Notes: generated by a model from the letters alone, not told the origin. Shown: positions 11,450 through 61,865, numbered from the stretch's first letter. The stretch is DNA of 64,000 nt from an uncultured Candidatus Saccharibacteria bacterium (GCA_964644035.1 CAZXUH010000002.1:756-64755); one strand, 5' to 3'. A program made the numbers and translations.

Positions 11450-12541
11450 TTACTTTACTATTATAAATGATGCTGTCGGTGTCATTCCATTTTCATTTCC
11501 GACCATAATCGGCATCGAAAACTTCGTGCCCGGATCTTTAACCATTACATCTTTGATGATATTTTGATACTGGAACGATGACAATGAAAAAGTAAGTGTC
11601 TTGCCGTCCAAAGATGCGACACCCTCAAGAATACCTATTGAAGTAGCAATAGTATTGTTTGAATTGAAACCAGTACCAGTCAGAGTGACTGTGTCCTGAA
11701 GGGTTGCTTCGGCAGGTGAGACTGTGTTTATGACTGGAACATTTGCTGCGGTATTACCAACAGTAATTTTTGCGAGCGATCCAGATACTTCTGACTTACC
11801 TCGCACATTTGAAACACCAATTTCATAGGTGCCCAGTGAAATACTACTTGGCACCGTGACTTTAATCGTAGTGCCATCTGCCGAGCTAATATTTTCCAAT
11901 GTCGCAGCATTGCCTATATATACAGTATTGCCTGTCGGCATGAAACCTGTACCCTGTATTGTTATTGTTGTACTTGCCACAAGTTTATAAGGCGTCACAC
12001 CATATACTTTTACTTTCTGAAGAAAGTTTCTTACTTCAATCGGCAAAAGAGGAGAATCAAAATATCCTTCATTGGAATTTGAAGTAGAGACAACTTGATT
12101 GTTTATCGTTTGATTATTTGCCGTCATATTACTTGCAGGGTTGGAACTTACCTCAATAATTTGATTTGAATTATTCTGGACAGTTTTTGCATTCAATTCA
12201 TTGAGCTTTATGCGAGTGAGAGAACCGACAAATCCCGTGCCGCTTGTAAGGCTAGCTTTGACCAAAATATCTTGTCTATACGTTTCTTGAAAACGAATCA
12301 CTGCATTTTTAGTGAGATTGCCAAAATAAGTAGTTTCATTGCCAGGAGAACCAGGACCAATGCTTGCAATTTTGCTATTAGCCTGAGAATTGAGAAGTTT
12401 TTGCAGAGCAAGCACGTCAGAACCCTCATCACCGACAGTAAGATTGCGACTAAAAGTGAAATTGTTCTGAGCAAAAGCAGTCAAAAACACGCTAGTGAAG
12501 CAAAAAATAGAAACGAAACCTGCTAAAATTATTTTTTTCAT
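11450..12541 (-). CDS. secreted protein with peptidoglycan-binding-like domain and Ig/TIG-like repeats
   Basis: Signal peptide, then ...LTVGDEGSDVLALQKLLNSQ... (PG_binding_1-like), then T/S-rich beta-repeat regions. Confidence 0.5.
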   Translation of the reverse strand: MKKIILAGFVSIFCFTSVFLTAFAQNNFTFSRNLTVGDEGSDVLALQKLLNSQANSKIASIGPGSPGNETTYFGNLTKNAVIRFQETYRQDILVKASLTSGTGFVGSLTRIKLNELNAKTVQNNSNQIIEVSSNPASNMTANNQTINNQVVSTSNSNEGYFDSPLLPIEVRNFLQKVKVYGVTPYKLVASTTITIQGTGFMPTGNTVYIGNAATLENISSADGTTIKVTVPSSISLGTYEIGVSNVRGKSEVSGSLAKITVGNTAANVPVINTVSPAEATLQDTVTLTGTGFNSNNTIATSIGILEGVASLDGKTLTFSLSSFQYQNIIKDVMVKDPGTKFSMPIMVGNENGMTPTASFIIVK

Positions 12542-12589: not shown

Positions 12590-13420
12590 TTGGTATATCA
12601 TTGTCCTATGAAGAGATTATTTAAAGGTCCTATTTTTATTGCACTGACCATTGTCTTTAGTCTCTTAGCAATTGTCGGTGCTTACCGCTATAGACACTCT
12701 CAAGAAGCGACGGTATATAGCTCTTCTACAGGATCTACGACCCCTTTGACGATTTTGGCTGAAAATATATCGGACGAAGACTGGCAGGAGCTCCTGAATA
12801 GGGTGGGTGAGACACAAAATAGCACAAATACGGCTCCATTGAGCAATTCTGACGTGATTTCTAGGGAAATATTTGCCCAATTTGTCTATACCAAGCAGCA
12901 AGGCAAGAATATTACCCCTGAACAAGCCAAACTTATTGCCAATGACCTTATAAAATATGCCGATTCTATCGATGTACCCCTCAAACAGTACACCCCTGCG
13001 GACATAAAAGTGGTCAAAAACCCCACTCAAAATGACATTGTGACCTACAGAAACCAGCTCAACAGCATCGTATTTTCAGAAAAACAGGAAATTGGCAATG
13101 AATTGGTCATTATGCAGGAGGCAGTGGTAGACAACAACCTCGAAAATATGTCCAAACTGAAAGGAATTTCTGATTTTTACAATAAAATTGCCTTTCAACT
13201 CCTCGCTGTAAGCGCTCCAGCACCTATTGCGCAAGAGCATCTCGATATAGTCAACCTTTATTTGCGAATTGCCAAAGACGTAAAGTCATTCGACAAACTT
13301 AAAAACGATCCTATCATCGCTGCGAAGAATTTTGGAGACTACAGTAATGCCGATTTGGCCCTTTTTAAGACCTTTCAAAAAATCATGGTTTATTTTGAGT
13401 CACAGGGTGTTGATTTCTAA
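12590..13420 (+). CDS. hypothetical membrane-anchored protein
   Basis: 276 aa. The N-terminal TM IFIALTIVFSLLAIVGAY is followed by a soluble domain. It is the first gene of the + strand T4SS-like block. Confidence 0.45.
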   Translation: MVYHCPMKRLFKGPIFIALTIVFSLLAIVGAYRYRHSQEATVYSSSTGSTTPLTILAENISDEDWQELLNRVGETQNSTNTAPLSNSDVISREIFAQFVYTKQQGKNITPEQAKLIANDLIKYADSIDVPLKQYTPADIKVVKNPTQNDIVTYRNQLNSIVFSEKQEIGNELVIMQEAVVDNNLENMSKLKGISDFYNKIAFQLLAVSAPAPIAQEHLDIVNLYLRIAKDVKSFDKLKNDPIIAAKNFGDYSNADLALFKTFQKIMVYFESQGVDF

Positions 13421-13455
13421 AAAGACATTGAAAAATATGTGTTAAAATAAACTGG

Positions 13456-15105
13456 ATGACATCTTGGAAATTGAAATCCATCTCCTTTGTTTTGTTTGTT
13501 GCCATAATCGCACCATCATTAGTTTGGATTTTTGCTCCGAAGACACAAGTTGAGGCTGCAATTTTTAATTGTGCACCTTCCGTTGCAGAGCAGGTAACAC
13601 GAACGGGGGCACAAACCGCTGAAAATGCTGCCTACAGCACACTTGGAGTTCCGGTTGATATTGGACCAGTTTATAAAACAAGTCTTACACAAGGTGCAGG
13701 TGCAGCAGTAAGTGATAATCGAAAGACGAGCTGCATGGATGGTATTGGTTGGATGCTCGCAAAAATTGCCGTCGCATATATTACACAGTCAGTAGTGCAA
13801 TGGATCAATAGTGGCTTCAATGGATCACCAACATTCATCACTGATCCAAAAGGATTCATACTTAAAGTGGCCGACGAGCAATTTGCAAATATTATGACCA
13901 CGCTATTTCCATCGACCAGTGGTCTTGCGGATCTGGTCTGTAGTCCATTTAGTTTGGATATAAAATTAAAGTTGGCACTCAAATTTAATTTCAATTATAA
14001 ACGTCTCAACATACCAAGCGGCTGTAGCTTGACCGATATTAGTAACAATATCGGAGGAGCTGTCGGGGGAGCACAACAAAGTATTACAGAACAGTACAAT
14101 GATTTTACCAGTGGAAATTTCAGTAATGGCGGATGGGATCGATGGTATGAGATTACACAAAATTCCGACAACAATAAATACGGCGCAGAGCTCAACACAG
14201 ATATTGCAGTCACCGCTGCAATAGAAGACGCACAAGGACAAGAAGTTGATTTACTCAATTCAAACAATTGGTTTAAATCACTCACAAAAGGAGAGGGGAA
14301 TATCACAGGTGCTATAAACAGTATTATTACTCCTGGAAAACAAATCCAAGGAATGCTCTCAAACAGTATCCAAGATCCGACAGATGAACTAAAACTTGCA
14401 GACAGTATTGATGAAATTGTTGGTGCGCTTATCCAACAATTGATTGGTCAGGCAATCGGCGATGGTGGTATTGCTGGACTCAGCCAAACAGATACAAGTG
14501 AGGGTCAAACATCAAGCTATGCTGATCAAATACTTGAGGAACGTAATGCAATGGAAGAAGAGAATACAAATGATCAAAATACTATTCCTCAGCCACCTGG
14601 CTTACCTACATCAACACCTCCAATATCGGGTGGCGGACAACCAAATACTCCGACAAACGTCGCTCTCAACAAACGTCCTCAGCAATCGAGCAACTATGCT
14701 GGTTCGACCGGAGCTATAAAAGCCGTGGATGGAATGACCCAAGATGTTCCTGTACAGGATTTTTATGCTATTACCAATAGCCAAGTACAAGCATGGTGGC
14801 AAGTTGATCTCGAACAAAGTGAAGACATTGGTAGCATTGAAGTTTGGCCTCGAGGTGATGCGACCGATCCGCTCAACAACTTCTACGTATTGGTTTCCGA
14901 TCAACCAATATCAGGAAGTCTCGATCAGATTATTGCTGACAGTAGTGTGAGGAAGTTTAGAATTTCTGGAGGTATTGCAAATCCTCCTCAGGTCATCAAT
15001 GTCAATGGAATGGGTCGATATGTTCGCGTGCAACGTGCTGATACCACTCCAAAATTTCTTGAGCTTTTGGAAGTGAGAGTAATTTCAAGACCAACTGAAA
15101 ATTAG
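13456..15105 (+). CDS. secreted protein with C-terminal F5/8 type C (discoidin) domain
   Basis: Signal peptide. The C-terminal ~140 aa (...AWWQVDLEQSEDIGSIEVWPRGD...RYVRVQRAD...LELLEVRV) fit the discoidin/F5_F8_type_C pattern. Confidence 0.55.
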   Translation: MTSWKLKSISFVLFVAIIAPSLVWIFAPKTQVEAAIFNCAPSVAEQVTRTGAQTAENAAYSTLGVPVDIGPVYKTSLTQGAGAAVSDNRKTSCMDGIGWMLAKIAVAYITQSVVQWINSGFNGSPTFITDPKGFILKVADEQFANIMTTLFPSTSGLADLVCSPFSLDIKLKLALKFNFNYKRLNIPSGCSLTDISNNIGGAVGGAQQSITEQYNDFTSGNFSNGGWDRWYEITQNSDNNKYGAELNTDIAVTAAIEDAQGQEVDLLNSNNWFKSLTKGEGNITGAINSIITPGKQIQGMLSNSIQDPTDELKLADSIDEIVGALIQQLIGQAIGDGGIAGLSQTDTSEGQTSSYADQILEERNAMEEENTNDQNTIPQPPGLPTSTPPISGGGQPNTPTNVALNKRPQQSSNYAGSTGAIKAVDGMTQDVPVQDFYAITNSQVQAWWQVDLEQSEDIGSIEVWPRGDATDPLNNFYVLVSDQPISGSLDQIIADSSVRKFRISGGIANPPQVINVNGMGRYVRVQRADTTPKFLELLEVRVISRPTEN

Positions 15106-15113
15106 AAAAGTAT

Positions 15114-17801
15114 ATGAGCAAGATGTATAAGAAAAAATACGTATTCCTTACTGCCCTGAGCGTAGTTTTGATTGTTTTTCTTATTCCAAAAGCAGCTCAT
15201 GCTGATATTTTTGATATTGCACTGGATTCTGCTCTCAATGCAGGCATAGGATTGATCCGAGGACTGATGATTGGAATTCTTGCTCTTTTCAGCTGGATAC
15301 TTTTTGCAGTAGGTAGCCTGCTCGATCTCACGGTGAAGTACACAATTATTGAGATGGGTGAATTTGTGAATGGTGTTAATTCGATCAGCATTGCCTGGAA
15401 ATTCTTCCGAGACATAGCAAATATGTTCTTTATTTTTGTTCTGACATATGCCGGAATCACCACTATTTTGGGTGTACAAAGATCAGATTGGAAAACTATT
15501 CTTCGCAACATTGTCATTGCTGGCCTGCTCATAAACTTTAGCCTTTTCTTCACAAAAATTCCTATCGACATTTCAAATATTATTTCTATCCAGCTCTACA
15601 AGGCTATGACAAGCAACGTCACTTCGACCGTTGCAGGACAACAAGTCTCTGGTATGGCAGTGGAATTCATGAACCACCTAAAAGTTCAGACTATTTATAG
15701 ACCTTCAGGGGAGGGGGTCATTGACGCAACAGAAGTAAATCTTGTTGACCAACTCAGCACTATTCTTATCTCATCGATCTTTGGTATCACGATTATACTC
15801 ATTACAGCGTGTGTCTTTTTGGCAATTGCCGCTATGCTCCTTCATCGCTTTGTAAAACTCATATCACTAATGATTCTTTCTCCTTTGTACTTCTTAGGCA
15901 TGATTTTGCCAAGTGCCAAGGAATACGGAGGAAGGTGGAAACAAGACCTGATAAGTCAGTGTATATTTCCCGTAGTATTGTTTGGTCTTCTCTATGTAGT
16001 AGTACTATTCCTACGAACAGGCACATTGAGCAAATTCTCAGCTGGAACTTTTGCAGAAGGACTCAATGGCTCAGGAACAATCATTGCAAATCTTTTGATC
16101 AATTACGGATTGATCATGGCTATGATTGTCGGATCACTTACAGCAGCACAAAAAGCTGGTGGTGAGGGAGGTAGATTTATGGACAATAGAATTAAGAGTT
16201 TGCAAAAATTCCCAGGCAGATTGCTATCATCAACTGCAAATACAGCAGCGAGAACAGCATCATGGGCAGGTGGTGCTGCCGTGCGCCAAGTAGTACGTGG
16301 TGGAGATACAGTTGCTGAGAAATCTGGCGCAAAGAAATGGGCAACGACCAGACTCAAGGCTGGAGCTGCTACTCAAAGCGAAGATCTCAAACTTAAAGGC
16401 AATAACACTGTCACAAAAATTGCTGGCGGTGCAATAAACATTGCAACAGGACTTACTGGTATACGCCTTCTTGCAGCAAAAGCAACACGAGGAGCTTCAA
16501 GTGCCTCGCTCAAAGCAGCTGGCAACTTTGCAAACAATGCAAGCTTCGATGCAATGGGTGTAGAGAAGAGAGGTTTTGCTAAAATCGATTCAGATGAAAG
16601 AGAAAAACTTACAGCTTCAAAAGTTTCTTATGAAGAACAAGTTAGAAAAAATGAATTCAAGAAAGCTCAGACAGAATTTAAAGACGTTTCTAAAATTAAA
16701 GTTAGAACAAATGATGATGGTAGAAACTTTGTCGACATTGGCGACGGCGTAGAAGTAGAAATGAGAGATGATGAGAGAGTTCGAGGTGTCGACATGCTAC
16801 TTAGCGAAGTTAAGAAAATTAGAAAACAATACACTGGTCTTCTTAAAAATCGCCGACCTAAGGAACTCGATAAGGTTAAATTCAACGATATTAAAGCTGC
16901 AGCAGATATTCTTACTGCCGAGCAGTTTACATATCTCGTTGGCAAAGAAAGCAAACTTACTGATCAAGAGAAGGATACACTCACCACCGAAAGAGTTAGT
17001 ATGCCAAAAGTTCTCATGGAAAGACTTGAGAGTGCTGAGAGGGAATTTGAGGAAGAAAACGATCCAGTTCAGAAAGCTGCTCGGGAAAATGCACTTAAGG
17101 CTGCACAGAAAAAGGTCAACGACTCACTCAAGAAACTTACCGACAAAGAAATGGAAGTTATTGCACCTCATTTCTTCGATACCAATAAAGACAGGACGTC
17201 TCTTCTTGAAACATTTGCAAAAAGCATCAGTCAAAGTACCGCCGACAAGCTCAAAAAACTTGATAAGCTTGGCGATGATGACAAACTACTTATCAATAAG
17301 ACCCGCAAGGCCGTCTTCCAAGCACCTCTCAATGCCTTTAGGACTGCATCTGCAACAGTTAATCGCCTACGAATGGCTGGTACAAGCAGCGGAACTGAAT
17401 TTGATAGAGCCCAAGCTGAAGCAAACAGGCAAGAAAAGAAGCTTAAGAGCGCATTTGCAAGATCATCGGGAGAGCAGATCGCAAAAATGGGTTCAGAATT
17501 TGTCACTGATCCTAAAATCATTGAACTTCTTGATGGTAAGCACTTGAAGAAGCTTGTGGAACTTGCCGAGGATATGGATAGCGTAACGATTAACGGTCAG
17601 GAAAGAAATCCATTTGAATATATTGCTGAAGAGAAAATAAGAATGCTTGAAGAACATGCAGCAGGAAATCGAGAAGAAAAACCAAAAGGTATAGACTTCA
17701 TCCTTAGGAACGAGAACTCAGGCATATTTGATGTCGATGCAGATGAAGTCAGAACCACGATTCAAAATATAAGGTCAACAACACGAACACAACAACCATA
17801 A
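15114..17801 (+). CDS. VirB6/TrbL-like polytopic membrane protein with long charged C-terminal extension
   Basis: Signal peptide, then at least 6 predicted TM helices over ~330 aa, then a ~500-aa K/E/A-rich coiled-coil-like tail. Its position immediately upstream of the VirB3-like and VirB4 genes supports the call. Confidence 0.5.
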   Translation: MSKMYKKKYVFLTALSVVLIVFLIPKAAHADIFDIALDSALNAGIGLIRGLMIGILALFSWILFAVGSLLDLTVKYTIIEMGEFVNGVNSISIAWKFFRDIANMFFIFVLTYAGITTILGVQRSDWKTILRNIVIAGLLINFSLFFTKIPIDISNIISIQLYKAMTSNVTSTVAGQQVSGMAVEFMNHLKVQTIYRPSGEGVIDATEVNLVDQLSTILISSIFGITIILITACVFLAIAAMLLHRFVKLISLMILSPLYFLGMILPSAKEYGGRWKQDLISQCIFPVVLFGLLYVVVLFLRTGTLSKFSAGTFAEGLNGSGTIIANLLINYGLIMAMIVGSLTAAQKAGGEGGRFMDNRIKSLQKFPGRLLSSTANTAARTASWAGGAAVRQVVRGGDTVAEKSGAKKWATTRLKAGAATQSEDLKLKGNNTVTKIAGGAINIATGLTGIRLLAAKATRGASSASLKAAGNFANNASFDAMGVEKRGFAKIDSDEREKLTASKVSYEEQVRKNEFKKAQTEFKDVSKIKVRTNDDGRNFVDIGDGVEVEMRDDERVRGVDMLLSEVKKIRKQYTGLLKNRRPKELDKVKFNDIKAAADILTAEQFTYLVGKESKLTDQEKDTLTTERVSMPKVLMERLESAEREFEEENDPVQKAARENALKAAQKKVNDSLKKLTDKEMEVIAPHFFDTNKDRTSLLETFAKSISQSTADKLKKLDKLGDDDKLLINKTRKAVFQAPLNAFRTASATVNRLRMAGTSSGTEFDRAQAEANRQEKKLKSAFARSSGEQIAKMGSEFVTDPKIIELLDGKHLKKLVELAEDMDSVTINGQERNPFEYIAEEKIRMLEEHAAGNREEKPKGIDFILRNENSGIFDVDADEVRTTIQNIRSTTRTQQP

Positions 17802-17802
17802 T

Positions 17803-18546
17803 ATGATTGCATTTTCAAAAGCAGATAAAATAAAAGCCTACAGACTTCTTTCACCGCAAGAAAAGAATACGGTGTTTTCTCAAACAGTTGGCGAGAAAAT
17901 AGATCTTATCTCAATGAAGTATGGATTGGATCCTGCAAAGTCCAAACGTTTCAAATACAGTTTAGGGTTGTTTCTTCTTGGTTTGATTACTAAAAATGAC
18001 ATTCCTCAAGTAATCAATGAGCGCTTGCCCGAACTACCAAATAACGAGGTTATGGAGGATATTAAGAGCATCTTTTTCCCAGAAGTAGAAAAAGTTATTC
18101 GAGAGTACAAACCCGATCCCGAGGAAGAAGAGCCCAACGCCAAGGACGAACCTCTTACTGAAGAACAAAAACAGATGGACGCTCAACTTGAGTCAGAACC
18201 TGAAGAAGTAAGTAGCGAAGAAGAGGGTATAGACCGTGAAGATCTTCTCAAAGCAATTGAGGATCCTGAAGAAAAAAATCTTCAAAAAAGTGCTGCGGCT
18301 TCACAGGATAAATATAGAGAACCTATCGAAACACCAAAACCAGTATCGACTGGCAATCCGGTAGAAGATCGTCTCAAAGGTATCGTATTTACTCCAAAAG
18401 AAACAAAACAAGTAGTGGTAGAAGCACCAAAACCTCAGCCTTTGCCAAGTAAACCTGTTGCAAAACCAAATACATCTATACCTCCGCTTCAGCAAAGCGT
18501 CCCTAAGTATCAAGGAAACGATCCGTACAGAGAACCTCTTTCGTAA
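17803..18546 (+). CDS. hypothetical acidic, Pro-rich protein
   Basis: 247 aa. The central region is rich in E/D/P (EEEEPNAKDEPLTEEQ...). No family recognised. Confidence 0.4.
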   Translation: MIAFSKADKIKAYRLLSPQEKNTVFSQTVGEKIDLISMKYGLDPAKSKRFKYSLGLFLLGLITKNDIPQVINERLPELPNNEVMEDIKSIFFPEVEKVIREYKPDPEEEEPNAKDEPLTEEQKQMDAQLESEPEEVSSEEEGIDREDLLKAIEDPEEKNLQKSAAASQDKYREPIETPKPVSTGNPVEDRLKGIVFTPKETKQVVVEAPKPQPLPSKPVAKPNTSIPPLQQSVPKYQGNDPYREPLS

Positions 18547-18652
18547 TAAAAAGGGCTGCTGTCGGATGAACAGCAGCCCAGGAACCCCATGGTTCCACCA
18601 AAGCCATGTGAAGTATGTATGTATAAAGTGGATGTATGCAACTGTATAAATA

Positions 18653-19108
18653 GTGCATAATATAGTCATGCAATTTCAGGTTCCTCAATTTATCGAAGTA
18701 GAAGATAAGATTTTCGGACCACTGACAATCCGCCAGTTCATCTATATTGCCGGCGGAGCAGGTATGGGCTATATCTGCTATGCTCTCTTGCCCTTGATCT
18801 TGGCTATACCTGCTATCGGCGCTGTCGGCACACTTACATTTCTATTGGCTTTTTATAAGTACAATAACCGTCCTTTTATCTATTTTGTCGAATCGGCTTT
18901 TAAATACAGGACCAATAATCGGCTCTATATATGGAAAAAGGATCAGCCTACGCCAAAAGCTCAGGAGGAAAAGAAAAAAGCTGCAGATCAACCAAAACTT
19001 TTTGTCCCAAAGCTCTCAGATAGCAAACTCAAAGACCTAACTTGGAGTCTTGATATCCGTGAAAGTCAAAATCCGCTGACAGGTAAAGATAACGAGACGA
19101 ATACATAA
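18653..19108 (+). CDS. VirB3/PrgI-like small membrane protein (T4SS)
   Basis: 151 aa with two adjacent TM helices near the N-terminus. It is encoded directly upstream of VirB4, the conserved VirB3 position. Confidence 0.45.
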   Translation: MHNIVMQFQVPQFIEVEDKIFGPLTIRQFIYIAGGAGMGYICYALLPLILAIPAIGAVGTLTFLLAFYKYNNRPFIYFVESAFKYRTNNRLYIWKKDQPTPKAQEEKKKAADQPKLFVPKLSDSKLKDLTWSLDIRESQNPLTGKDNETNT

Positions 19109-19154
19109 ATAGAGAGGGGAAACATAGTTATAATTTTAGGATATAATAGAAAGA

Positions 19155-19796
19155 ATGGCACCTATATCAGAAAGCGCAAAGGCAACGCAAGATTTCGTAC
19201 CGATTCAGGAGGTTCGAGACGGTGTTATTGTACTCAAAGATGGCTCGCTACGAGCTGTAGTACTTGTTTCATCGATCAACTTCGACCTCAAATCAGAAGA
19301 TGAACAGAAATCCATCCTTTTTCAATTCCAAAACTTCCTCAACTCCCTCGATTTCTCTATTCAAATGTTCATCCAGTCGAGAAAGCTCGATATACGCCCA
19401 TATATAGCGCTTTTACAGGGCAGACTCAAGGAGCAAACCAATGATCTTATGAAGGTTCAGGTGCAAGAATACATAGAATTCATCAAGAAATTCACCGATT
19501 CGAGTAATATCATGTCAAAAAGCTTCTTTATTGTTGTTTCCTATGCTCCTGCAACACTGACAATAAAAAGAAATCCTCTTTCAAAACTGTTTGGTAAGGG
19601 TGAATCGACACAAACTGTCGAAAATACAAAGTTTGAAGAAGCACGAAGCCAGCTCGAAGAGCGTGTATCGGTCATAGAGCAGGGTCTTGTACGCACCGGA
19701 GTCAGAGCAGCACGCTTGGGCACAGAAGAAGTGGTCGAACTCTTCTATAAGATGTTCAATCCTGGCGACACCGAGAAGCCGATTATTCAATTATAA
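19155..19796 (+). CDS. virB4: VirB4-family protein, N-terminal domain fragment (Gram-positive TcpF/Orf16/PrgJ-type N-terminus)
   Basis: ...FVPIQEVRDGVIVLKDGSLRAVVLVSSINFDLKSEDEQKSILFQFQNFLNSLDFSIQMFIQ... resembles the N-terminal ~200 aa of monoderm VirB4 ATPases, from my recollection of Tn916 Orf16-like proteins. It stops 8 nt before the ATPase ORF in another frame. Confidence 0.6.
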   Translation: MAPISESAKATQDFVPIQEVRDGVIVLKDGSLRAVVLVSSINFDLKSEDEQKSILFQFQNFLNSLDFSIQMFIQSRKLDIRPYIALLQGRLKEQTNDLMKVQVQEYIEFIKKFTDSSNIMSKSFFIVVSYAPATLTIKRNPLSKLFGKGESTQTVENTKFEEARSQLEERVSVIEQGLVRTGVRAARLGTEEVVELFYKMFNPGDTEKPIIQL

Positions 19797-19803
19797 TATT
19801 TAT

Positions 19804-21642
19804 ATGTCATTACTAGGAGGACTTTTCGGCAAAAAAGAAGAAGCAACACCGGCAAATACATCTATTCTGCCTCAACAGATTTATGAAGCTGGAGTACTCG
19901 AGCTCAAGGATATTATTGCTCCCTCTGCACTTAAAATAGGCCCTAGAAGCCTCTCTCTGGGAGACAAGATTCTTCGATCATTCTTTGTTATTTCATATCC
20001 TCGCTATCTTACAGAGAGCTGGTTTTCTCCTATCATCAACCTCGACAAGGTATTTGATGTTTCAATATTCATTCATCCAGTAGATACTGCAAGAGCACTC
20101 AAGCAATTTCAGAAAAAAGTAGCTGAAGTGCTTAGTCAGATCAGTGCTCGTGAAGAAAAAGGCTTGGTACGCGATCCTAAACTCGATACAGCCTATCAAG
20201 ACCTCGAATCATTGAGAGACAATCTCATGCAAGCTCAGGAAAAACTCTTTGATGTTGGTCTTTATATAACACTCTACGGAGAAAGCGAAGAAGAACTCGA
20301 TAAAATCGAATCTGAAATCAAATCCATCCTCGAAGCAAAGCTTATTTATATAAAACCTTCTCTTTTCCAACAAGAACAAGGCTTCAGAAGCACGTTGCCA
20401 ATCCAAGACGACCAATTGGCCGTGCATTCCAAACTCAATTCTTCACCTCTTTCTAGTCTTTTTCCTTTCGTCTCATTTGACCTGACATCCGATAGGGGAA
20501 TTCTCTACGGCATCAATAGACACAATTCAAGTTTGGTGCTTTTCGATCGCTTCTCACTCGAAAACTACAACTCTCTTATCTTTGCAAAATCCGGTTCTGG
20601 TAAATCATATACAACCAAACTCGAAATCCTACGCTCACTCATGTTTGATACTGACGTTATTGTTATTGACCCAGAAAGAGAATACGAGTACATGGCTCAA
20701 GCAACAGGTGGAAGATATTTCAATATCTCTCTCAATTCAGACAACCATATCAATCCTTTCGATTTGCCTGTGCCCAATGAAGATGAGACTCCAGCAAGCG
20801 TCTTACGTTCTCAAATCATCAACCTTGTCGGACTATTTCGTATCATGATGGGAGGTATTACACCCGAAGAAGATGCAATTATTGACCGAGCCATCACTGA
20901 AACATATGCTCTCAAAGATATTACTCCTGAATCTGATTTTTCATCGATCGAAGCACCTCTTCTTTCTGACTTTGAACTTGTCCTTGCTGGTATGGAAGGA
21001 GGGGAATCACTTGCACAACGCCTTACAAAATACACTCGTGGTACATGGGCAGGATTTATAAACAGACCATCGAACGTTGATATCAATAAAAAGTTTGTCG
21101 TCTTTTCTCTCCGAGATATGGAAGACGAACTCAAGCCTGTCGGTATGTATATCGTCATGCATTATATTTGGAATGCAATCAGGAGAAATCTCAAGAAGCG
21201 CTTGCTTGTAATCGACGAAGCGTGGTGGATGATGAAGTCCGAAGATACGGCCTCATTCCTACTCTCTTTGGCAAAACGTGGACGCAAATACTATCTCGGT
21301 CTTGCAACAATTACCCAAGACGTCGACGACTTTATGCGTTCTCCATATGGTCAACCGATCATCACCAACTCTTCGATTCAGCTTCTCTTGAAGCAATCAC
21401 CATCTTCTATCGACAGACTGCAGCAAGTATTCAATCTTACTGACGAAGAAAAATATCTATTGCTCGAATCAGGAGTAGGAGAAGGTATATTCTTTGCTGG
21501 TCTCAAGCACGTGGCTATAAAAGTTATTGCATCATATACAGAAGATCAGATTATCACTTCTGATCCATCGCAGATTCTCGCTATCAAGGAAGCCAGAAGG
21601 GAACTTGAACAAGCTGGCGGCGAGACACCTGCGCAACAATGA
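19804..21642 (+). CDS. virB4: VirB4/TrbE/CagE-family T4SS ATPase (central and C-terminal parts)
   Basis: CagE_TrbE_VirB-like middle region, Walker A FAKSGSGKSY, Walker B LLVIDEAWWMM, and a C-terminal ...LATITQDVDDF... region. The start is taken at MSLLGG, the first ATG after the upstream stop. Confidence 0.85.
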   Translation: MSLLGGLFGKKEEATPANTSILPQQIYEAGVLELKDIIAPSALKIGPRSLSLGDKILRSFFVISYPRYLTESWFSPIINLDKVFDVSIFIHPVDTARALKQFQKKVAEVLSQISAREEKGLVRDPKLDTAYQDLESLRDNLMQAQEKLFDVGLYITLYGESEEELDKIESEIKSILEAKLIYIKPSLFQQEQGFRSTLPIQDDQLAVHSKLNSSPLSSLFPFVSFDLTSDRGILYGINRHNSSLVLFDRFSLENYNSLIFAKSGSGKSYTTKLEILRSLMFDTDVIVIDPEREYEYMAQATGGRYFNISLNSDNHINPFDLPVPNEDETPASVLRSQIINLVGLFRIMMGGITPEEDAIIDRAITETYALKDITPESDFSSIEAPLLSDFELVLAGMEGGESLAQRLTKYTRGTWAGFINRPSNVDINKKFVVFSLRDMEDELKPVGMYIVMHYIWNAIRRNLKKRLLVIDEAWWMMKSEDTASFLLSLAKRGRKYYLGLATITQDVDDFMRSPYGQPIITNSSIQLLLKQSPSSIDRLQQVFNLTDEEKYLLLESGVGEGIFFAGLKHVAIKVIASYTEDQIITSDPSQILAIKEARRELEQAGGETPAQQ

Positions 21643-22343
21643 AGCGTCATGCAAAAAAAATAGGAATATTTACTTGTATAGCCCTAATAATTGCTGCTGG
21701 ATTTTTTGACCTTATACAATTTTTACTCGATCTTGTGGTGGCAGGTTTGATTGCGGATACTATTTTAGCCTTACTGTTCTTTATACCTCTCAATTTATGG
21801 CTTTTACTGACAGGTAGACTCAATGGAAAAGTGGCTGCCAATTCATTGATAGCTTTTATTATAGGTCTCATACCAGTCATAAACGCTCTTCCAGAGTGTT
21901 TGTATGCAGTGGTAATGATTATTATTTTTAATAATCTAAAAGAAATCCTTCAGGTTGTAACAAAGATGGCTCCGTATATGAAAACTGCAGCAAAATTTGT
22001 TCCACCCTTGCAAGCCCCAGTAAAAACAATCGAGGTTGTACAGAAAATAGACAAAGCAACAGGAGGAAATATAGCTAAGAAGATAGCAAAAGAAACTCAA
22101 ACAGGCGACCAGACGCTCGATTTTAAGTCATTTGATGGCTCAACACAGGCTCAAAACTATACAAATGGCGTTGCAAACCAAGTTCTTGTCATAAAAAAGA
22201 AGGGTGGTTTGACTGAAAATACCCTTGATCTGCAAAATAAAATGCAGTCTGCAGCTGACAGACCAAGTGGAAATCTTCCCCAAATTTCAAATAGGAAAGG
22301 TGTTACAATAGAGGGTGCAAATGAAAAAAGGCCTATTGCATAA
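21639..22343 (+). CDS. hypothetical T4SS-associated membrane protein
   Basis: 234 aa. Three or four N-terminal TM helices and a hydrophilic C-terminus. The start ATGA overlaps the VirB4 stop, indicating translational coupling. Confidence 0.45.
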   Translation: MKRHAKKIGIFTCIALIIAAGFFDLIQFLLDLVVAGLIADTILALLFFIPLNLWLLLTGRLNGKVAANSLIAFIIGLIPVINALPECLYAVVMIIIFNNLKEILQVVTKMAPYMKTAAKFVPPLQAPVKTIEVVQKIDKATGGNIAKKIAKETQTGDQTLDFKSFDGSTQAQNYTNGVANQVLVIKKKGGLTENTLDLQNKMQSAADRPSGNLPQISNRKGVTIEGANEKRPIA

Positions 22344-23313
22344 CATCGCTATTTTCACCACTCTCTTGATAGCGGTTTTTGTCTGTGGCATAACTTCTAC
22401 TCATGCAGAAGTGACCAATCCTTCTGACGTAACATCTATTATCTCCACTGTCAGCCCTGAGTATCCGAAAGCGTTTGATGAAGTTACTATTTCTATCAAG
22501 AGTTATGCTATGGACCTACAACGATCACTTATACGTTGGTATGTCGATGGAAAACTACTGTCAGAAAAGACTGCACTGACACAACTATCAGTACAAGCAG
22601 GGAATTATGGCACCACAAAGACAGTAAAAATACAGGTTATTGCTGCCGATGGTAGAGTAGCTGAAAAATCAATCTTTATAACACCTTCGGATTTGAGCCT
22701 TGTATGGCAAGCTGATACGTATACCCCTCCTTTTTATAAAGGAAAGCGTCTCTATAGCGCTAGCTCAGACATACTCATGATGGCAATACCAAGTGGTAAG
22801 TACGATTCAGATAAAATTATCTTTACATGGAAACAAGATGCCGACGTCATACCAAATAGTGGGGGGCTTGGAAAAAACACTATTACTATTCCAGGAACAC
22901 TTGTCACCAGAGAGAAAATGATCATTGTAGAAGCAATTTCTGTCGATGGTACCTATCATGCACGTCAGATAGTTACTCTGTCTCCAATTTTTACAAAAGT
23001 ATTGATGTACGAAAACAATCCACTGTTTGGAGTATGGTATGAAAACGCTTTGGTAAAAAACCAAACTATCGCATCAGCAGAATTCAAAGTGGCAGCATAT
23101 CCATTCTTTTTCTCTACAAAAAGCAGATTTTTGGATGATGTTCAGTATCTCTGGAGCGTAAACGGTGCAGGAGCAACGACAGCCTCTGGTAAAAGTTCTA
23201 TAACTCTCCAAAGGGATCAGAGTATTTCCAAAGCAGGTCTAGGTGTTGAGGCTCGGCATAAAAGCAAAATACTGCAAGATGCAAAAACATCAGTAAATCT
23301 AAACTTTAAATAA
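22315..23313 (+). CDS. secreted protein with internal ~100-aa beta-rich repeats
   Basis: Signal peptide (IAIFTTLLIAVFVCGITSTHA) and repeated Ig-like modules (...IRWYVDGKLL..., ...IIFTWKQDADV..., ...VQYLWSVNGAG...). Confidence 0.45.
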   Translation: MQMKKGLLHNIAIFTTLLIAVFVCGITSTHAEVTNPSDVTSIISTVSPEYPKAFDEVTISIKSYAMDLQRSLIRWYVDGKLLSEKTALTQLSVQAGNYGTTKTVKIQVIAADGRVAEKSIFITPSDLSLVWQADTYTPPFYKGKRLYSASSDILMMAIPSGKYDSDKIIFTWKQDADVIPNSGGLGKNTITIPGTLVTREKMIIVEAISVDGTYHARQIVTLSPIFTKVLMYENNPLFGVWYENALVKNQTIASAEFKVAAYPFFFSTKSRFLDDVQYLWSVNGAGATTASGKSSITLQRDQSISKAGLGVEARHKSKILQDAKTSVNLNFK

Positions 23314-23314
23314 T

Positions 23315-24244
23315 ATGACCCAAACTATTTCAACTTTGTATTTTAAAAAAATAATTTCACTACTAGTCTTTTTAACAGCTATTATCGCTGGTTTTTCTTT
23401 TTTAACTTCACTGACGCATGCTGTAGAGATAGACACCAGTTACGATCCACTTGTTAAGATTGAAGGTGTCACCGATGCCCAAACAACCGATGCAGATATT
23501 GGTTCTTATGTATCAGGTGCATATAAATGGACGATTTCGCTCGCAATTGCCTTGGCGGTGATCATGTTTACCTTCTACGCTTTTCAATACCTACTTTCCG
23601 AATCTACTATTACGAGCAAAGCTCATGCAAAAGAGGGGATGAAGAATGTTATTATCGGTCTTTTACTTATTTTTGCAGCATATCTCGTACTCCAGACAAT
23701 CAACCCTCAACTTGTAGCATTCAATTTAACCTTAGATTTGCCCGAAGCTACTTCGGTTTCAGAATCAGATAATGGTTGTGCTGGAGCAGATATAAAACCA
23801 ACTGGTGTAGGAGTTTATTACATTACAAATATAGAATGCCGAAAAGCTATTCCAGGCAGTGATCAGTTCGTTACTACTCAAGCAACGCGTTACAACGTGT
23901 ACAGTGGCTCTATTAATAGATGCCAGCAAGATGTGAGGGATGGGAATCTAGGTAACAATGTTGTCGGATGTGTAATATACAGCTCCAATTGGATTATTCG
24001 CCAAAGAATACAACTAACTGCCTCTCAAGAAGGTGGTGCTGACTACTCTGAATCCACATACTATCCTTCTGATCTAAGTAAGGGCTGGAGTACGGAGGGA
24101 GAGTGCCAAGCTCAAATTCCAAACTACGGTAAAACCGATATACCTGCATACTGTGCTGAAGAAAGAGCGGGGGAATGGGAATTTTTTGGTTGCTCTGTTA
24201 TAAAAGAATGTCATCGATACGACGGTAATATCACTACTGAATAA
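23315..24244 (+). CDS. VirB2/TrbC-like pilin-topology protein fused to a Cys-rich C-terminal domain
   Basis: Signal peptide, a ~40-aa spacer, then two TM helices (ISLAIALAVIMFTFYAFQYL / VIIGLLLIFAAYLVLQTI) as in T4SS pilins. The C-terminal ~170 aa carry 9 Cys. Confidence 0.45.
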   Translation: MTQTISTLYFKKIISLLVFLTAIIAGFSFLTSLTHAVEIDTSYDPLVKIEGVTDAQTTDADIGSYVSGAYKWTISLAIALAVIMFTFYAFQYLLSESTITSKAHAKEGMKNVIIGLLLIFAAYLVLQTINPQLVAFNLTLDLPEATSVSESDNGCAGADIKPTGVGVYYITNIECRKAIPGSDQFVTTQATRYNVYSGSINRCQQDVRDGNLGNNVVGCVIYSSNWIIRQRIQLTASQEGGADYSESTYYPSDLSKGWSTEGECQAQIPNYGKTDIPAYCAEERAGEWEFFGCSVIKECHRYDGNITTE

Positions 24245-24250
24245 ACAATT

Positions 24251-25555
24251 ATGCTATCAAAAAAAACACTTCTCCTATTTCTAGTTCTCGTCCTGCTTGC
24301 AGTCGGAGCAGCGTTTTATTTTGTATCAGTAAATAAGCAGGGTGGAACGGTTCTTAATAGCGTTAGAAACCTTCTTCCTTTTGGCAGCAACGATATTTCT
24401 TCTGGCAGCATAGGAACTCCCTCGGATAATATTCCGGGTGGAACAGAGGACGAACCTATTGTTGTTAATACAAATACCGATGCACCAGTACCGGTCTTTA
24501 GAAAAATTGCAGATGGACCAGTATCTGGCTTCACAGTATTTACTAGACAACGCACTGAAATTCGTGAAGGTAAGAAAGTAACGATTACTGAAACACCTAT
24601 TAGATACATTGAGCGAAAAAACGGCAATGTCTTTGAAACATTCTCAACATCGACACGAACAAATCGTCTTACCAACACTACCTATCCACGTATTCAGGAA
24701 GCATTCTTTACCAATACAGGAAATTCTCTTGTTATCAGAAGCCTTGGTGACACAGATGAAATAAAAACATATCTTGCTGATATTATTTTGCCAGAAACAA
24801 CTTCTACTTCTACGGTTTTTGATGAAGAATCACTTGGATCTCTCAAGGGCTTCTATATTAAGGACGATGTTTCTTTTGTAGACATTTCTCCTGATACCAA
24901 AACAATACTTCTTGCTACAGAAGACGTATCAGGTACCTCTATTCAGACTATAGATACAAAAGGTGGTGGTACAAAAAATATATTTAGCTCAAGACTAGGG
25001 GAATGGCTCGTACAGTGGTATAGCGCCGACACAATCGCCCTTACATCTAAACCTTCTTCTGGTGTTAATGGTCTCACCATGCTTCAGAATATTAGAAATA
25101 GCACATCTGAGAAACCAGTTACCAATGTCCCTGGCCTCACTTCTCTCGTCAATTCTAAGGGCGATAAAATTCTATTCTCACAAGCCCAGAACAAAGGCTT
25201 CGCACTTGGATATTATGATAAAAAAACCGGTCTAAAGACCCAAGCAGACAGACCAACCCTTCCAGAAAAATGCGTCTGGTCAAAGAAACAAACAAATATC
25301 GTATACTGTCTTGTGCCAAACATAGTCAACAGTGGAACATATCCGGATGATTGGTATCAGGGTACTATTAGTTTTACTGACAGCATCTGGAAACTAGACA
25401 CAACTTCAAATTCTATCTCTTCTCTCTATGATCCTGCAGATACGGACAACGCTGAAATAGACGGTATTAGACCAGCACTTTCTCCAAACGAAGATTATCT
25501 TATCTTTATGAATAAAAAAGACGGTTCACTCTGGTCACTCAAACTCGAAATCTAG
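24251..25555 (+). CDS. secreted/membrane-anchored protein with beta-propeller-like (TolB/PD40-like) C-terminal region
   Basis: N-terminal TM (LLLFLVLVLLAVGAAFYFV). C-terminal repeats such as ...KGDKILFSQ..., ...NIVYCL..., ...YLIFMNKKDGSLWSL... resemble PD40/WD-like blades. Confidence 0.4.
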   Translation: MLSKKTLLLFLVLVLLAVGAAFYFVSVNKQGGTVLNSVRNLLPFGSNDISSGSIGTPSDNIPGGTEDEPIVVNTNTDAPVPVFRKIADGPVSGFTVFTRQRTEIREGKKVTITETPIRYIERKNGNVFETFSTSTRTNRLTNTTYPRIQEAFFTNTGNSLVIRSLGDTDEIKTYLADIILPETTSTSTVFDEESLGSLKGFYIKDDVSFVDISPDTKTILLATEDVSGTSIQTIDTKGGGTKNIFSSRLGEWLVQWYSADTIALTSKPSSGVNGLTMLQNIRNSTSEKPVTNVPGLTSLVNSKGDKILFSQAQNKGFALGYYDKKTGLKTQADRPTLPEKCVWSKKQTNIVYCLVPNIVNSGTYPDDWYQGTISFTDSIWKLDTTSNSISSLYDPADTDNAEIDGIRPALSPNEDYLIFMNKKDGSLWSLKLEI

Positions 25556-26831: not shown

Positions 26832-26939
26832 AAAACGAGGTCGAATTAAATATTAACAGGTTATGCACACATTATAAACATATAAATCAAAATTTAACAA
26901 GTTCTCTAATATCAATCCAGGTATATAATTCTTATCACT
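26832..26939. promoter_or_regulatory. rpmH-dnaA divergent intergenic region with DnaA-box-like 9-mer (part of the origin region)
   Basis: TTATGCACA at 26861-26869, one mismatch from TTATCCACA, in an AT-rich context. Confidence 0.4.
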
Positions 26940-28289
26940 ATGAATGATCAAGACTTGTGGAATGTTGCTTTAAAAGAACTAGAACCTATTGTTTCTAAAA
27001 GCAATCACGGTCTGTTTAAAAAAACATCGATCATGAAACTCGAGGATGGCACTGCTCATATTGCTGTACCAAGCCTCTTTGTAAAAGAAGTTTTATCGAC
27101 AAAATTCAATAAAAGCATTCTCAGGGCTCTACGTCTTCAGTCTGACACAATCAGAAATATCTCCTACACTATAAGCGAATTGAGTGCTCAGGATAAGAAA
27201 AAAGAGGTGGTAGTAATCAAAAAACAGGAAACTACGGCTCAACTACCGCTTAATGACTACTATGTAAATAAAGATGACAATCTAAATCCTCGTTATACCT
27301 TTGATTCTTTCATAATTGGCCCCTTCAACCAACTCGCCCACGCCGCTTCTCAGGCGGTCATACAAAAGCCGGGTACAGCATACAATCCGCTCTTTATATA
27401 TGGAGATACAGGTAGGGGAAAGACGCATTTGATCCAAGCAATAGGCAATCAAATGAAGCATTTGTATCCAAGTAAGAAAGTGTTCTACTTAACCTCAGAA
27501 AAATTCGCGACAGAATACTTTAACTCTTTGCAAAACGGAAAAATAAACCAGTTCAAACAAAAATACCGAGTGTACGATGTATTTATCATGGATGATATAC
27601 AATTTTTCTCAAATAAAGAGAAAAGTCAGGAAGAATTGTTCCATGTATTCAACGAACTCTACGACAACAACAAACAAATCATCTTTTCTTCAGATAAACA
27701 CCCACATTACATTCAAAATCTCGAAGAAAGGCTCAAATCTCGCTTCGGAGCAGGTATGATTGTCGATATTCCAGCTCCAGATCACGAATCGAGAGCTGCT
27801 ATTTTGAAAGCAAAAGCTCGACATCACAATATAGAACTCACTCACGACATAATTGATTTTATTGCTTCAACAGTTGAAGCAAATATTAGAGAACTCGAAG
27901 GAATTATCAATTCGATTATTATTCGAAGTCAAATAGAAGCCCGATCACTTTCTCTTTCTGATATAAAAACAATTATAAAAGGTCCGGCTCGACCTCGACG
28001 CAATGTTTCTGTAAAAGATGTCATTAAAACTATATCTCAGTTTTACGATGTAGAAGAGAAAAGTATATATGAGAAAACCCGAAAAAAGGAGGTGGTTAAG
28101 CCACGCCAGGTGATTATGTACATACTCAGAGAAGACTACGATGTATCATATCCATCGATAGGAGAGAAGCTTGGCGGTAGAGATCATACTACTGTTATTC
28201 ATTCATGTGAAAAGGTAAAAGGGGATATAAAAACCAATCCTGTATTTGCTGAGGAGATAGAAAGAATTCGTTCGATTATCTCATGTTGA
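26940..28289 (+). CDS. dnaA: chromosomal replication initiator protein DnaA
   Basis: AAA+ Walker A GDTGRGKTHL, sensor and box VII regions, and a C-terminal domain IV helix-turn-helix. 449 aa. Confidence 0.95.
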   Translation: MNDQDLWNVALKELEPIVSKSNHGLFKKTSIMKLEDGTAHIAVPSLFVKEVLSTKFNKSILRALRLQSDTIRNISYTISELSAQDKKKEVVVIKKQETTAQLPLNDYYVNKDDNLNPRYTFDSFIIGPFNQLAHAASQAVIQKPGTAYNPLFIYGDTGRGKTHLIQAIGNQMKHLYPSKKVFYLTSEKFATEYFNSLQNGKINQFKQKYRVYDVFIMDDIQFFSNKEKSQEELFHVFNELYDNNKQIIFSSDKHPHYIQNLEERLKSRFGAGMIVDIPAPDHESRAAILKAKARHHNIELTHDIIDFIASTVEANIRELEGIINSIIIRSQIEARSLSLSDIKTIIKGPARPRRNVSVKDVIKTISQFYDVEEKSIYEKTRKKEVVKPRQVIMYILREDYDVSYPSIGEKLGGRDHTTVIHSCEKVKGDIKTNPVFAEEIERIRSIISC

Positions 28290-28508
28290 TAAAACTGGGG
28301 AAAAAAATCGTACAACTTCTTAATAAACCCTTGATAAATACAGAAAAAATATTTTTAAAGAAAAATTAAAAAAATAATCCGATGTTTTCCACAGAAAATC
28401 AGAAAAATTTTTCAGAAAAAATCGTTACAGAGAAACAAATTAAAGGGTTATCAACATATCCCCAGGCCTAATAGTAATAATAAATAAATTCTTATATTAA
28501 TAATACAT
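28290..28508. promoter_or_regulatory. candidate oriC / DNA unwinding region between dnaA and dnaN
   Basis: A very AT-rich 219-nt spacer with DnaA-box-like TTTTCCACA (28385-28393) and TTATCAACA (28448-28456), plus long A/T runs. Confidence 0.5.
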
Positions 28509-35897: not shown

Positions 35898-35930
35898 TAA
35901 AAAACACAACTTGTTAAGTTGTGTTTTTTA
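35898..35930. terminator. bidirectional Rho-independent terminator (ends pilB transcript)
   Basis: AAAAAACACAACTT-gtt-AAGTTGTGTTTTTT, a perfect hairpin flanked by an A-run and a T-run. Confidence 0.75.
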
Positions 35931-37631: not shown

Positions 37632-37805
37632 GTTCCATATTCTAGCATACACCGTCACAATTAAGCTCCTTAAAACACCCCTTTCTAGGCCTAAAATAGC
37701 CCAGCTAAGCTTATTGACAAGTGCTATATAAATATGATATAATATACACGGAGTACGATCATTGAATGAATCAATCAAAACATTTTCCCAATGAAAGGGG
37801 AATTT

Positions 37806-54748: not shown

Positions 54749-54752
54749 TCAC

Positions 54753-61781: not shown

Positions 61782-61865
61782 ATGCGCAGGTGGCGAAATT
61801 GGTAGACGCACTACCTTGAGGTGGTAGCGCCCGCAAGGGTATGGAAGTTCGAGTCTTCTCCTGCG
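61782..61865 (+). tRNA. tRNA-Leu (anticodon GAG), class II
   Basis: Acceptor GCGCAGG/CCTGCGC, anticodon stem CTACC/GGTAG with loop TTGAGGT, a long variable arm, and T-loop TTCGAGT. Confidence 0.85.

Follow-up and report, generated by a model that had tools for sequence, protein, structure and literature searches.

A chromosomal type IV secretion-like operon beside dnaA in a Patescibacteria genome, with a conserved gene order and conserved modules carrying variable heads

In a 64-kb stretch of DNA from an uncultured bacterium recorded as Candidatus Saccharibacteria (GCA_964644035.1, CAZXUH010000002.1:756-64755), eleven open reading frames (ORFs), all on the + strand and tightly packed, occupy positions 12590-25555 and encode a putative type IV secretion system (T4SS). 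This whole stretch is called the window here, and positions are counted from its first letter. An earlier interpretation made from the DNA alone (the sequence-only reading) had described eleven co-directional genes next to the replication origin. All of these ORFs were found, and an identical public metagenome contig, whose genes had been called independently, has the same products, of 270, 549, 895, 247, 146, 213, 612, 234, 330, 309 and 434 amino acids for g1-g11 in order. Adjacent genes overlap or are separated by 1-46 nt, with the exception of the g4-g5 junction (106-121 nt). Pfam identified UvrD and KsgA on the left flank and YidC, RnpA, DnaA, DnaN and PBP1 on the right; the block sits between ksgA and yidC-rnpA-dnaA-dnaN, with the start of dnaA 1.4 kb beyond the end of g11, in line with the location first proposed. 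The eleven genes are as follows.

12590..13420, + strand: g1, predicted bitopic membrane-anchored protein with one N-terminal transmembrane (TM) segment and a mostly helical-looking ectodomain; 270 amino acids from the likely start, ATG 12608
13456..15105, + strand: g2, predicted secreted protein with a helical N-domain, a disordered linker and a C-terminal CBM32/F-lectin (discoidin) head
15114..17801, + strand: g3, polytopic membrane protein with a 505-residue charged tail (hydropathy), likely VirB6-like
17803..18546, + strand: g4, acidic, proline-rich protein with no TM segment (composition)
18653..19108, + strand: g5, small membrane protein of the PrgI family (VirB3-like) with two TM helices (Pfam); 146 amino acids from the likely start, ATG 18668
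19155..19796, + strand: g6, TrsD-like protein, a free-standing VirB4 N-terminal domain (NCBIfam)
19804..21642, + strand: g7, VirB4 ATPase body of the CD1110 family (NCBIfam); 612 amino acids from the likely start, ATG 19804
21639..22343, + strand: g8, small polytopic membrane protein, in ATGA overlap with virB4
22315..23313, + strand: g9, predicted secreted protein with three Ig-like beta repeats; 330 amino acids from the likely start, ATG 22321
23315..24244, + strand: g10, VirB2-like T4SS pilin module (Pfam T4SS_pilin) with an orphan Cys-rich head
24251..25555, + strand: g11, predicted membrane-anchored extracytoplasmic protein, probably a TolB-like beta-propeller

For comparison, the first 600 pattern matches among GTDB species genomes were listed. 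Relatives are encoded by 547 of these 600, and the best 80 (77-83% identical) supplied 80 species-representative loci, each with 10-kb flanks, which were compared by tblastn and iterative profile searches; 44 of these loci are complete.

Three adjacent genes of the block matched known T4SS families. The g5 product, which had been called a VirB3-like small membrane protein, fits that description with its two TM helices and its match to Pfam PrgI (PF12666; E = 6.2e-12, 46.3 bits against a cut-off of 27), and was recovered in all 80 loci by tblastn and in 77 by an ORF-level jackhmmer search. Similarly, g6 belongs to the TrsD/TraD family (NCBIfam NF041427; E = 1.5e-9), covers positions 2-124 of the CD1110 VirB4 model and carries PF26593 (TraC-like) in the independent gene calls. 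The g7 product scored 375 bits, above the cut-off of 325, against the CD1110-family VirB4 model NF045971 (model positions 185-733), matched Pfam P-loop_TraG (E = 4e-28) and has both its Walker A (KSGSGKS) and Walker B (LLVIDEAW) motifs intact. VirB4 had been described as lying in two pieces. Two ORFs are indeed present, but they are two intact genes and not the parts of a disrupted one. A frameshift or pseudogene was considered and rejected, as the g7 ATG begins 8 nt downstream of the g6 stop (TAA, 19794-19796), g6 is a separate ORF in 80 of the 80 loci and the 612-residue g7 product occurs verbatim in NCBI. These observations identify the split as the TrsD plus VirB4 arrangement known from pGO1/pSK41.

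A search for VirB4 homologues returned thousands of relatives. Identity is 79-92% for the 120 that were listed, and the named ones belong to metagenome-assembled genomes (MAGs) of Paceibacterota, Parcubacteria, Taylorbacteria and Zambryskibacteria. Because the window VirB4 is 77-92% identical to hundreds of these MAG proteins and at most 35% identical to any plasmid VirB4, it very likely belongs to the monophyletic Patescibacteria clade. The nearest plasmid proteins are of the CD1110 type, from Bacillota and Actinomycetota, at 29-35% identity.

The gene neighbourhood is conserved well beyond the motor genes. Across the related Paceibacteria loci the order is uvrD-ksgA-(g1 g2 g3 g4 g5 g6 virB4 g8 g9 g10 g11)-yidC-rnpA-dnaA-dnaN-pbp1, with all eleven genes collinear in 30 of the 44 complete loci and each family present in 37-44 of the 44. 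Median protein identity over the 80 loci, taken from species-level genomes, is 80% for VirB4, 64% for TrsD, 53% for PrgI, 57.5% for DnaA, 55% for UvrD, 49% for KsgA and 47% for DnaN. The difference between VirB4 and DnaA argues that the motor is under stronger constraint than the adjacent replication initiator, which is unusually strong for a secretion ATPase. The G+C content of the block (0.39-0.41) is the same as that of its flanks, and no integrase or tRNA adjoins it. The sequence-only reading had called the block an island. That term does not hold, as the block is a core operon between housekeeping genes in dozens of species with the G+C content of its surroundings. The fixed synteny, the conserved families and the G+C content instead point to a vertically inherited core operon and not a mobile element. 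An integrated conjugative element (ICE) was likewise rejected, on the equal G+C content of block and flanks and on housekeeping neighbours that are fixed across the 44 complete loci.

Genes for DNA processing and substrate coupling were sought in and around the block. Pfam analysis of the 20 other large ORFs of the window revealed no VirD4/TcpA and no relaxase, only housekeeping genes, two recombinases and type IV pilus genes. A canonical CD1110-type Brevibacillus plasmid supplied tblastn queries: its MobC, its relaxase and its VirD4 of the CD1115 family gave 0 matches (E <= 0.01) in the window and the 80 loci (1.43 Mb), while its VirB4, as a control, matched in 81 of 81. These results agree with the original statement that the window has no VirD4-type ATPase and no relaxase. 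No type IV coupling protein (T4CP) or relaxase was found within 10 kb of virB4 in the 80 related genomes, and the sequence just outside the block, where VirD4 together with a relaxase and an oriT would have spoken for an ordinary ICE, contained no transfer genes over about 10 kb beyond the right end of the window and in a left extension of less than 3 kb. For this genome, the absence of VirD4 extends no further than the window and the roughly 10 kb to its right. Recognition of an oriT depends on a known relaxase family.

A second feature of the operon is that g2, g3, g8 and g10 each consist of a conserved N-terminal module and a variable C-terminal part. In phmmer searches with the window sequences, the N-modules of g2, g3 and g10 were found in 58-63 loci and the TM module of g8 in 25, whereas the C-terminal parts gave 0-5 matches. 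The contrast is clear in g10, which had been read as a VirB2-like pilin with a Cys-rich domain. Its pilin module (residues 1-140) comprises a signal peptide, a Y-x-P-L motif and two TM helices, and scored 27.5 bits against Pfam T4SS_pilin (PF18895; cut-off 26.6), a family matched by 24 of 25 members of the g10 family; all eight cysteines fall in the C-terminal head of 169 amino acids (window 23735-24241). Both parts of the earlier description are thus borne out. Among relatives, the N-modules are similar in 2008 of 2016 pairs and the heads in 78 of 1770. The heads of 60 species form 32 unrelated clusters, in which the window head is a singleton, and when 1.84 billion representative proteins were scanned in full with HMMER, this head returned only its own cluster and one marginal match. 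Recognizable heads among the 60 are Peptidase_M15_4 (two), SLT (one), NlpC/P60 plus CHAP (one) and an Ig domain (one). Several further heads show, by eye, an H...D...HxH (LAS-like) pattern. Examples of variable heads in the related loci lie at L063:13302-13730, L053:13589-14101, L078:7825-8196 and L062:13614-14111.

The g2 protein is built in a comparable manner. It had been described as a secreted discoidin-domain protein, and it does have an N-terminal signal or anchor segment and a C-terminal F5/8-type-C domain (Pfam), a lectin head. Its conserved N-domain (approximately residues 84-335) is all-helical, with W116, N118, G120, F121, P125 and N239 invariant; modelled alone, it reached a pLDDT (predicted local distance difference test) of 59.6, which is of low confidence, and had no meaningful structural neighbour. 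A VirB5/TrbJ identity for g2, suggested by a sub-threshold DUF4141 match in one homologue, was not supported. The heads again differ among relatives, with discoidin in 3 of 25, bacterial Ig-like domains in 2 of 25 and 14 clusters among 33. Such variable heads would fit surface-exposed parts of the apparatus, host-facing or wall-remodelling, under diversifying pressure.

The g3 protein had been presented as VirB6-like with a charged tail of about 500 amino acids. Hydropathy analysis indicated a signal and about seven TM helices (residues 1-390) followed by a poorly conserved, charged, cytoplasmic-type tail of 505 amino acids, the 'extended VirB6' architecture. The TM module is conserved in 63 loci, and the window tail gave no phmmer match. 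The topology thus stands as described and the VirB6 identity is likely but not proven: Pfam TrbL/VirB6 was matched by 4 of 25 g3 orthologues at sub-threshold to moderate level (best E = 1.6e-4), the window g3 matched nothing there, and the g3 family gave no VirB6 match among PDB sequences. The g8 protein, described as a coupled membrane protein, has about four TM helices and is translationally coupled to virB4 through the ATGA overlap, as had been noted; its conserved TM module (D24 and P85 invariant) precedes a variable tail. The family lies immediately 3' of virB4 in 37 of the 44 complete loci, and no Pfam or NCBIfam family corresponds to it.

The remaining proteins are equally regular in position. 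Hydropathy analysis indicated one N-terminal hydrophobic segment, an anchor or signal, in each of g1, g2, g9 and g11, as anticipated for g1, which had been called membrane-anchored. The g1 family, always first in the block, occurs in 42 of the 44 complete loci and has no Pfam, NCBIfam or PDB match. The acidic, proline-rich character given to g4 was confirmed (pI 4.8, 11% Pro); its N-terminal region of about 90 amino acids is conserved and its tail is of low complexity. An iterative profile search placed its family at the same position in 43 of the 44 complete loci, and Pfam returned only a sub-threshold low-complexity match. In g9, read earlier as a secreted repeat protein, a signal segment precedes the three Ig-like repeats, in which W75, W172 and W280 are invariant. 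Its family, found in 43 of 44 loci, is the most conserved of the accessory proteins (41% mean column identity in the family alignment), and weak matches among 25 members were to BiPBP_C (six), Ig_3 (three) and PKD_3 (two). The g11 family is present in all 44 complete loci, and its alignment shows a strongly conserved C-terminal motif rich in Cys and Trp (K340, C341, W343, C353, P356, W368, Y369, G371 and D377). For this protein, reported as beta-propeller-like and secreted, an N-terminal anchor or signal was found, and the propeller is weakly supported, by a match of the family profile to TolB (E = 0.035) and by DUF5050 in 1 of 25 members; it is probably a propeller-like anchored protein.

Family profiles of g1, g2, g3, g9, g10 and g11 gave no significant match among all PDB sequences, the g11-TolB match being the best, and tblastn found no relatives of the g2 N-domain, g9 or g11 on 72,556 plasmids. 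Profiles of the accessory families compared by hmmsearch and hhalign with pCF10 Prg/Pcf, pSK41 Trs and the Brevibacillus CD1110-type plasmid gave no signal, a comparison without power since the positive controls were weak too (PrgI 20% and TrsD 2% probability). The proposal that the accessory proteins lack recognizable families therefore stands for g1, g4, g8, the g2 N-domain and the g10 head, and needs qualification for g9 (Ig-like) and g11 (propeller-like), which offer generic fold hints only. In this class, the accessory proteins are conserved parts of the system and keep their synteny.

Much of this picture has precedents. Wang and colleagues showed that in Southlakia epibionticum (S. epibionticum) a T4SS cluster (SEML1_0006-0019) that resembles Gram-positive conjugative systems is essential for epibiotic growth; it includes essential pilins and no recognizable coupling or relaxase proteins, and the authors suggested protein export or an alternative capacity (Wang et al., 2023, Cell, PMC10633639). 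Quiñonero-Coronel and colleagues surveyed 3,035 Patescibacteria genomes and found a monophyletic VirB4 clade nested in MPF-FATA, with TrsD as its most abundant partner, PrgI/VirB3, VirB6 and VirB2-like pilins near virB4 and VirB8 almost undetectable (Quiñonero-Coronel et al., 2025, Microb Genom, PMC12102498). In the same survey, relaxases occurred in 103 genomes only, T4CP homologues lay mostly far from virB4, and the typical virB4 neighbours in Paceibacteria and Microgenomatia were dnaA, dnaN, rnpA, ksgA and rpmH. A 2024 perspective called the role of these systems "completely unknown" and mentioned effector delivery or nucleotide/DNA acquisition (PMC11665869), and a 2025 review presents the Patescibacteria T4SS as the first on which the survival of its own bacterium has been shown to depend (PMC12857230). 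Since the first two papers describe TrsD, PrgI, VirB6, VirB2-like pilins, the missing relaxase and the dnaA site, the finding as first noted is already in the literature; the make-up of such an operon, its missing relaxase and its proximity to dnaA were published between 2023 and 2025. Possible additions from the present analysis are the conservation of all eleven families in synteny and the pattern of conserved modules with variable heads, which was not found stated in the cited papers on Patescibacteria T4SSs.

The operon shares with the S. epibionticum and other Patescibacteria systems a chromosomal site near dnaA, dnaN, rnpA and ksgA, an MPF-FATA-type VirB4 with a separate TrsD, a PrgI/VirB3, probably a VirB6-like protein, and VirB2-like pilin(s) although the envelope is monoderm. 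In both, the cluster lacks a relaxase and a T4CP, and many neighbours are unannotated. The two differ in that the saccharibacterial cluster has a six-pilin array, a peptidase and a lysozyme downstream of virB4, whereas in the Paceibacteria operon a single pilin bears a large variable head and the accessory set (g1, g2, g4, g8, g9 and g11) appears to be distinct.

Among Bacillota, pGO1/pSK41 Trs and the CD1110-type MPF-FATA systems (pCF10 Prg/Pcf, CTn2-like) share the CD1110-family VirB4, at the 29-35% identity given above, and the monoderm envelope. The order in pSK41 is TrsB-TrsC-TrsD-TrsE(VirB4)-TrsF(membrane protein)-TrsG(CHAP), and TrsC-TrsD-TrsE-TrsF is paralleled by g5-g6-g7-g8. Those systems, in contrast, are carried by plasmids or ICEs that also encode VirD4 (CD1115 family), MobC, a relaxase, a VirB1-type hydrolase and VirB8-like proteins, none of which is detectable at this locus; VirD4, the relaxase and the VirB1-type hydrolase are present in pSK41, pCF10 and the Brevibacillus plasmid alike. 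In pSK41, TrsB (L085:25115-25432), just upstream of TrsC-TrsD-TrsE, is annotated by RefSeq as a 'CagC family type IV secretion system protein', i.e. VirB2-like. If this annotation is correct, Patescibacteria may not have co-opted a pilin-like gene, which could instead be ancestral to pGO1-type monoderm systems; an hhalign comparison of the g10 family with TrsB gave 2.6% probability and had no power.

The explanation that we favour, and to which we give a probability of about 70% as a whole, is that the block is the Paceibacteria version of the chromosomal T4SS of the Patescibacteria clade, non-conjugative and host-interacting. Its identity as a T4SS of this clade appears close to certain, and a non-conjugative function in host interaction is somewhat better than an even bet. 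The machine would best be explained as a descendant of monoderm conjugation systems (MPF-FATA, pGO1/CD1110-like) that is now a core operon beside dnaA, apart from DNA-processing genes. The earlier preference for a secretion-type apparatus over a conjugative element is upheld by the monoderm CD1110-type T4SS genes, the lack of a nearby T4CP or relaxase and the fixed chromosomal site, and agrees with both published studies (PMC10633639; PMC12102498). The tie to host attachment made at the same time is looser than claimed, as what has been published is essentiality for epibiotic growth in one Saccharibacterium, with a role described in the terms quoted above (PMC11665869).

Under this explanation, PrgI/VirB3 (g5), TrsD (g6) and VirB4 (g7) would form a membrane-docked ATPase motor, and the extended VirB6-like g3, perhaps with g8, the channel through the cytoplasmic membrane. 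Driven by VirB4, the VirB2-like pilin g10 would be extracted and assembled into a wall-crossing filament or conduit, with g1, g9 and g11 as a wall-spanning or anchoring scaffold standing in for the missing VirB8 and VirB1 partners. The species-specific heads of g2 (here a glycan-binding lectin) and g10 (here orphan and Cys-rich, in some relatives peptidoglycan hydrolases) would engage or remodel the host surface, and the apparatus would serve host interaction, i.e. contact and the exchange of protein or other cargo, rather than DNA self-transfer. A functional analogy is proposed with Bordetella Ptl and Brucella VirB, as VirB4-driven machines without a dedicated coupling protein or DNA substrate. 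These differ in being diderm MPF-T systems with a VirB7/9/10 outer-membrane core, VirB11 and known substrates, and the sequence relationship is remote.

Several points weigh against this explanation. Essentiality is known, by transposon sequencing, for one Saccharibacterium only (S. epibionticum; PMC10633639) and for no member of the Paceibacteria. A VirD4-like gene may lie elsewhere in the genome, and since the survey finds such genes in most Patescibacteria (PMC12102498), the system may transfer DNA or coupled substrates. The window g3 itself has no significant VirB6 match, and a pilin with a C-terminal head of 170 amino acids may be unable to polymerize. The roles assigned to g1, g4, g8, g9 and g11 are guesses from topology and position, and profile and PDB searches found no fold or sequence link between these five and known T4SS parts.

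A bolder extension of the favoured explanation, which we hold only tentatively and consider less likely than its alternatives taken together, is that the g10 pilin module and the g2 helical module are carriers of swappable, species-specific heads, whether lectins, Ig-like domains, wall hydrolases (SLT, CHAP, NlpC-P60, M15) or orphan disulfide-rich domains like that of the window. The T4SS would then display or deliver a polymorphic, host-targeting repertoire on its pilus, the heads would set host range, and the family-less, syntenic g1, g4, g8, g9 and g11 would be new structural parts of a pilus-bearing T4SS of monoderm type. The proposed head-swapping of g2 and g10 is likened to polymorphic toxin and adhesin systems.

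Among the rival explanations, the one that survives best, although we consider it unlikely, is that the block encodes an import machine, a T4SS-derived channel or pilus that takes up DNA, nucleotides or host macromolecules for an organism unable to make nucleotides. The lack of a nearby relaxase or T4CP is as expected for such a machine, the very strong constraint on VirB4 would fit a nutritional, essential role, and the idea has been raised for Saccharibacteria, in which ComEC-dependent competence is dispensable and the T4SS essential (PMC11665869; PMC12857230). H. pylori ComB and archaeal Ced offer a likeness, as both combine a VirB4-family ATPase with a membrane channel, lack a relaxase and do not serve conjugative export, and the window VirB4 does give a partial match to CedB (E = 8e-10). 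That match, however, reaches 38 bits against a cut-off of 700 and reflects only shared ATPase ancestry, the CedD match is likewise far under its cut-off, and ComB and Ced differ from the block in envelope and accessory sets. The block shows no sign of DNA handling, with no DNA-binding or ComEC-like component, and the lectin and hydrolase heads point to surface engagement, which is compatible with either direction of transport.

Less probable still is that the system performs conjugation, i.e. DNA export, by means of a coupling protein and a relaxase whose genes lie at other places on the chromosome. The survey counted 5,713 VirD4-like proteins in 2,918 Patescibacteria genomes, mostly far from virB4 (PMC12102498), and the view of the present genome extends over 64 kb plus about 10 kb on the right and less than 3 kb on the left. 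Relaxases, on the other hand, are as rare as stated above (103 of 3,035 genomes), and the remote T4CP of S. epibionticum is non-essential whereas its T4SS genes are essential (PMC12102498; PMC10633639). Across species the operon keeps to a single chromosomal site among housekeeping genes, and the VirB4 tree is reported to track class taxonomy (PMC12102498); this pattern is unlike that of a self-transmissible element. Finally, that the block is a decaying remnant of an ICE with VirB4 broken in two, for which the split VirB4, the missing relaxase and T4CP and a XerC/D-like recombinase 10 kb to the left could be cited, is scarcely credible and effectively refuted by the synteny and conservation data, given eleven intact frames in an order kept in dozens of species, a VirB4 more conserved than DnaA with intact Walker motifs, a TrsD/VirB4 split that recurs in 80 of 80 loci and in pSK41, G+C content as in the flanks and no adjacent tRNA or integrase.

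Two further features lie within and beside the operon.

18553..18579, no strand: G+C-rich hairpin with an 11-bp stem, in the g4-g5 gap
11450..12541, - strand: secreted protein with PG_binding_1 and IPT/TIG domains (Pfam), divergent from g1, a possible associate of the system

The hairpin occupies the only sizeable intergenic gap of the block and has an A-run before it and no T-run after it on the + strand. Strong hairpins occur at the g4-g5 junction in 8 of 68 related loci, some with A- and T-runs that resemble bidirectional terminators. The element is possibly an attenuator or an RNA-processing or stability element, and the operon may consist of two units, g1-g4 and g5-g11, through a split or attenuation. 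The gene for the PG_binding_1 and IPT/TIG protein begins 48 bp upstream of g1 and is adjacent in only 22 of 80 related loci; it is uncertain whether it belongs to the system. A second secreted, wall-related protein, an M23 peptidase that carries two LysM domains (7019-7990, - strand), lies 4.6 kb upstream and is near virB4 in only 9 of 80 loci. Either of these proteins might supply the missing VirB1-like function, with a linkage that is weak in both cases.

Near the origin, three one-mismatch DnaA boxes lie in the 220-bp dnaA-dnaN spacer (28284-28456) and one lies upstream of dnaA (26861-26869; dnaA itself is 26940-28289), and G+C content falls to 0.34-0.36 around dnaA-dnaN. The spacer is suggestive of a candidate oriC; over the whole window, DnaA-box matches are not above chance (17 against 17.6 expected) and the GC skew has no clear switch. 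Type IV pilus genes elsewhere in the window include those for a PilB-type T2SSE ATPase and for PilM, after which come two small ORFs, possibly PilN/PilO (positions 35928-37778, - strand; 53141-54214, + strand; 54221-55295, + strand). By these annotations the genome has both a type IV pilus and a T4SS, as reported for Saccharibacteria. In the region 61784-63615, a large serine recombinase (62020-63615, - strand) stands beside tRNA-His and tRNA-Leu and is followed, beyond the end of the window, by a helix-turn-helix protein, regulators, a copper P-type ATPase, a cupredoxin and DsbD-like and DsbB-like genes. This is probably a small integrated metal (copper)-resistance islet and the only mobile-looking element seen.

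A large part of bacterial diversity belongs to the Patescibacteria, and the ways in which they exploit their hosts are poorly understood. The window presents no new kind of system; it is a clean Paceibacteria example, with a fixed eleven-gene order, a VirB4 more conserved than DnaA and an architecture of conserved modules and variable heads in the pilin and the lectin-bearing protein. The leads that it offers are this variable-head architecture and six conserved, family-less proteins as candidate wall-spanning parts.

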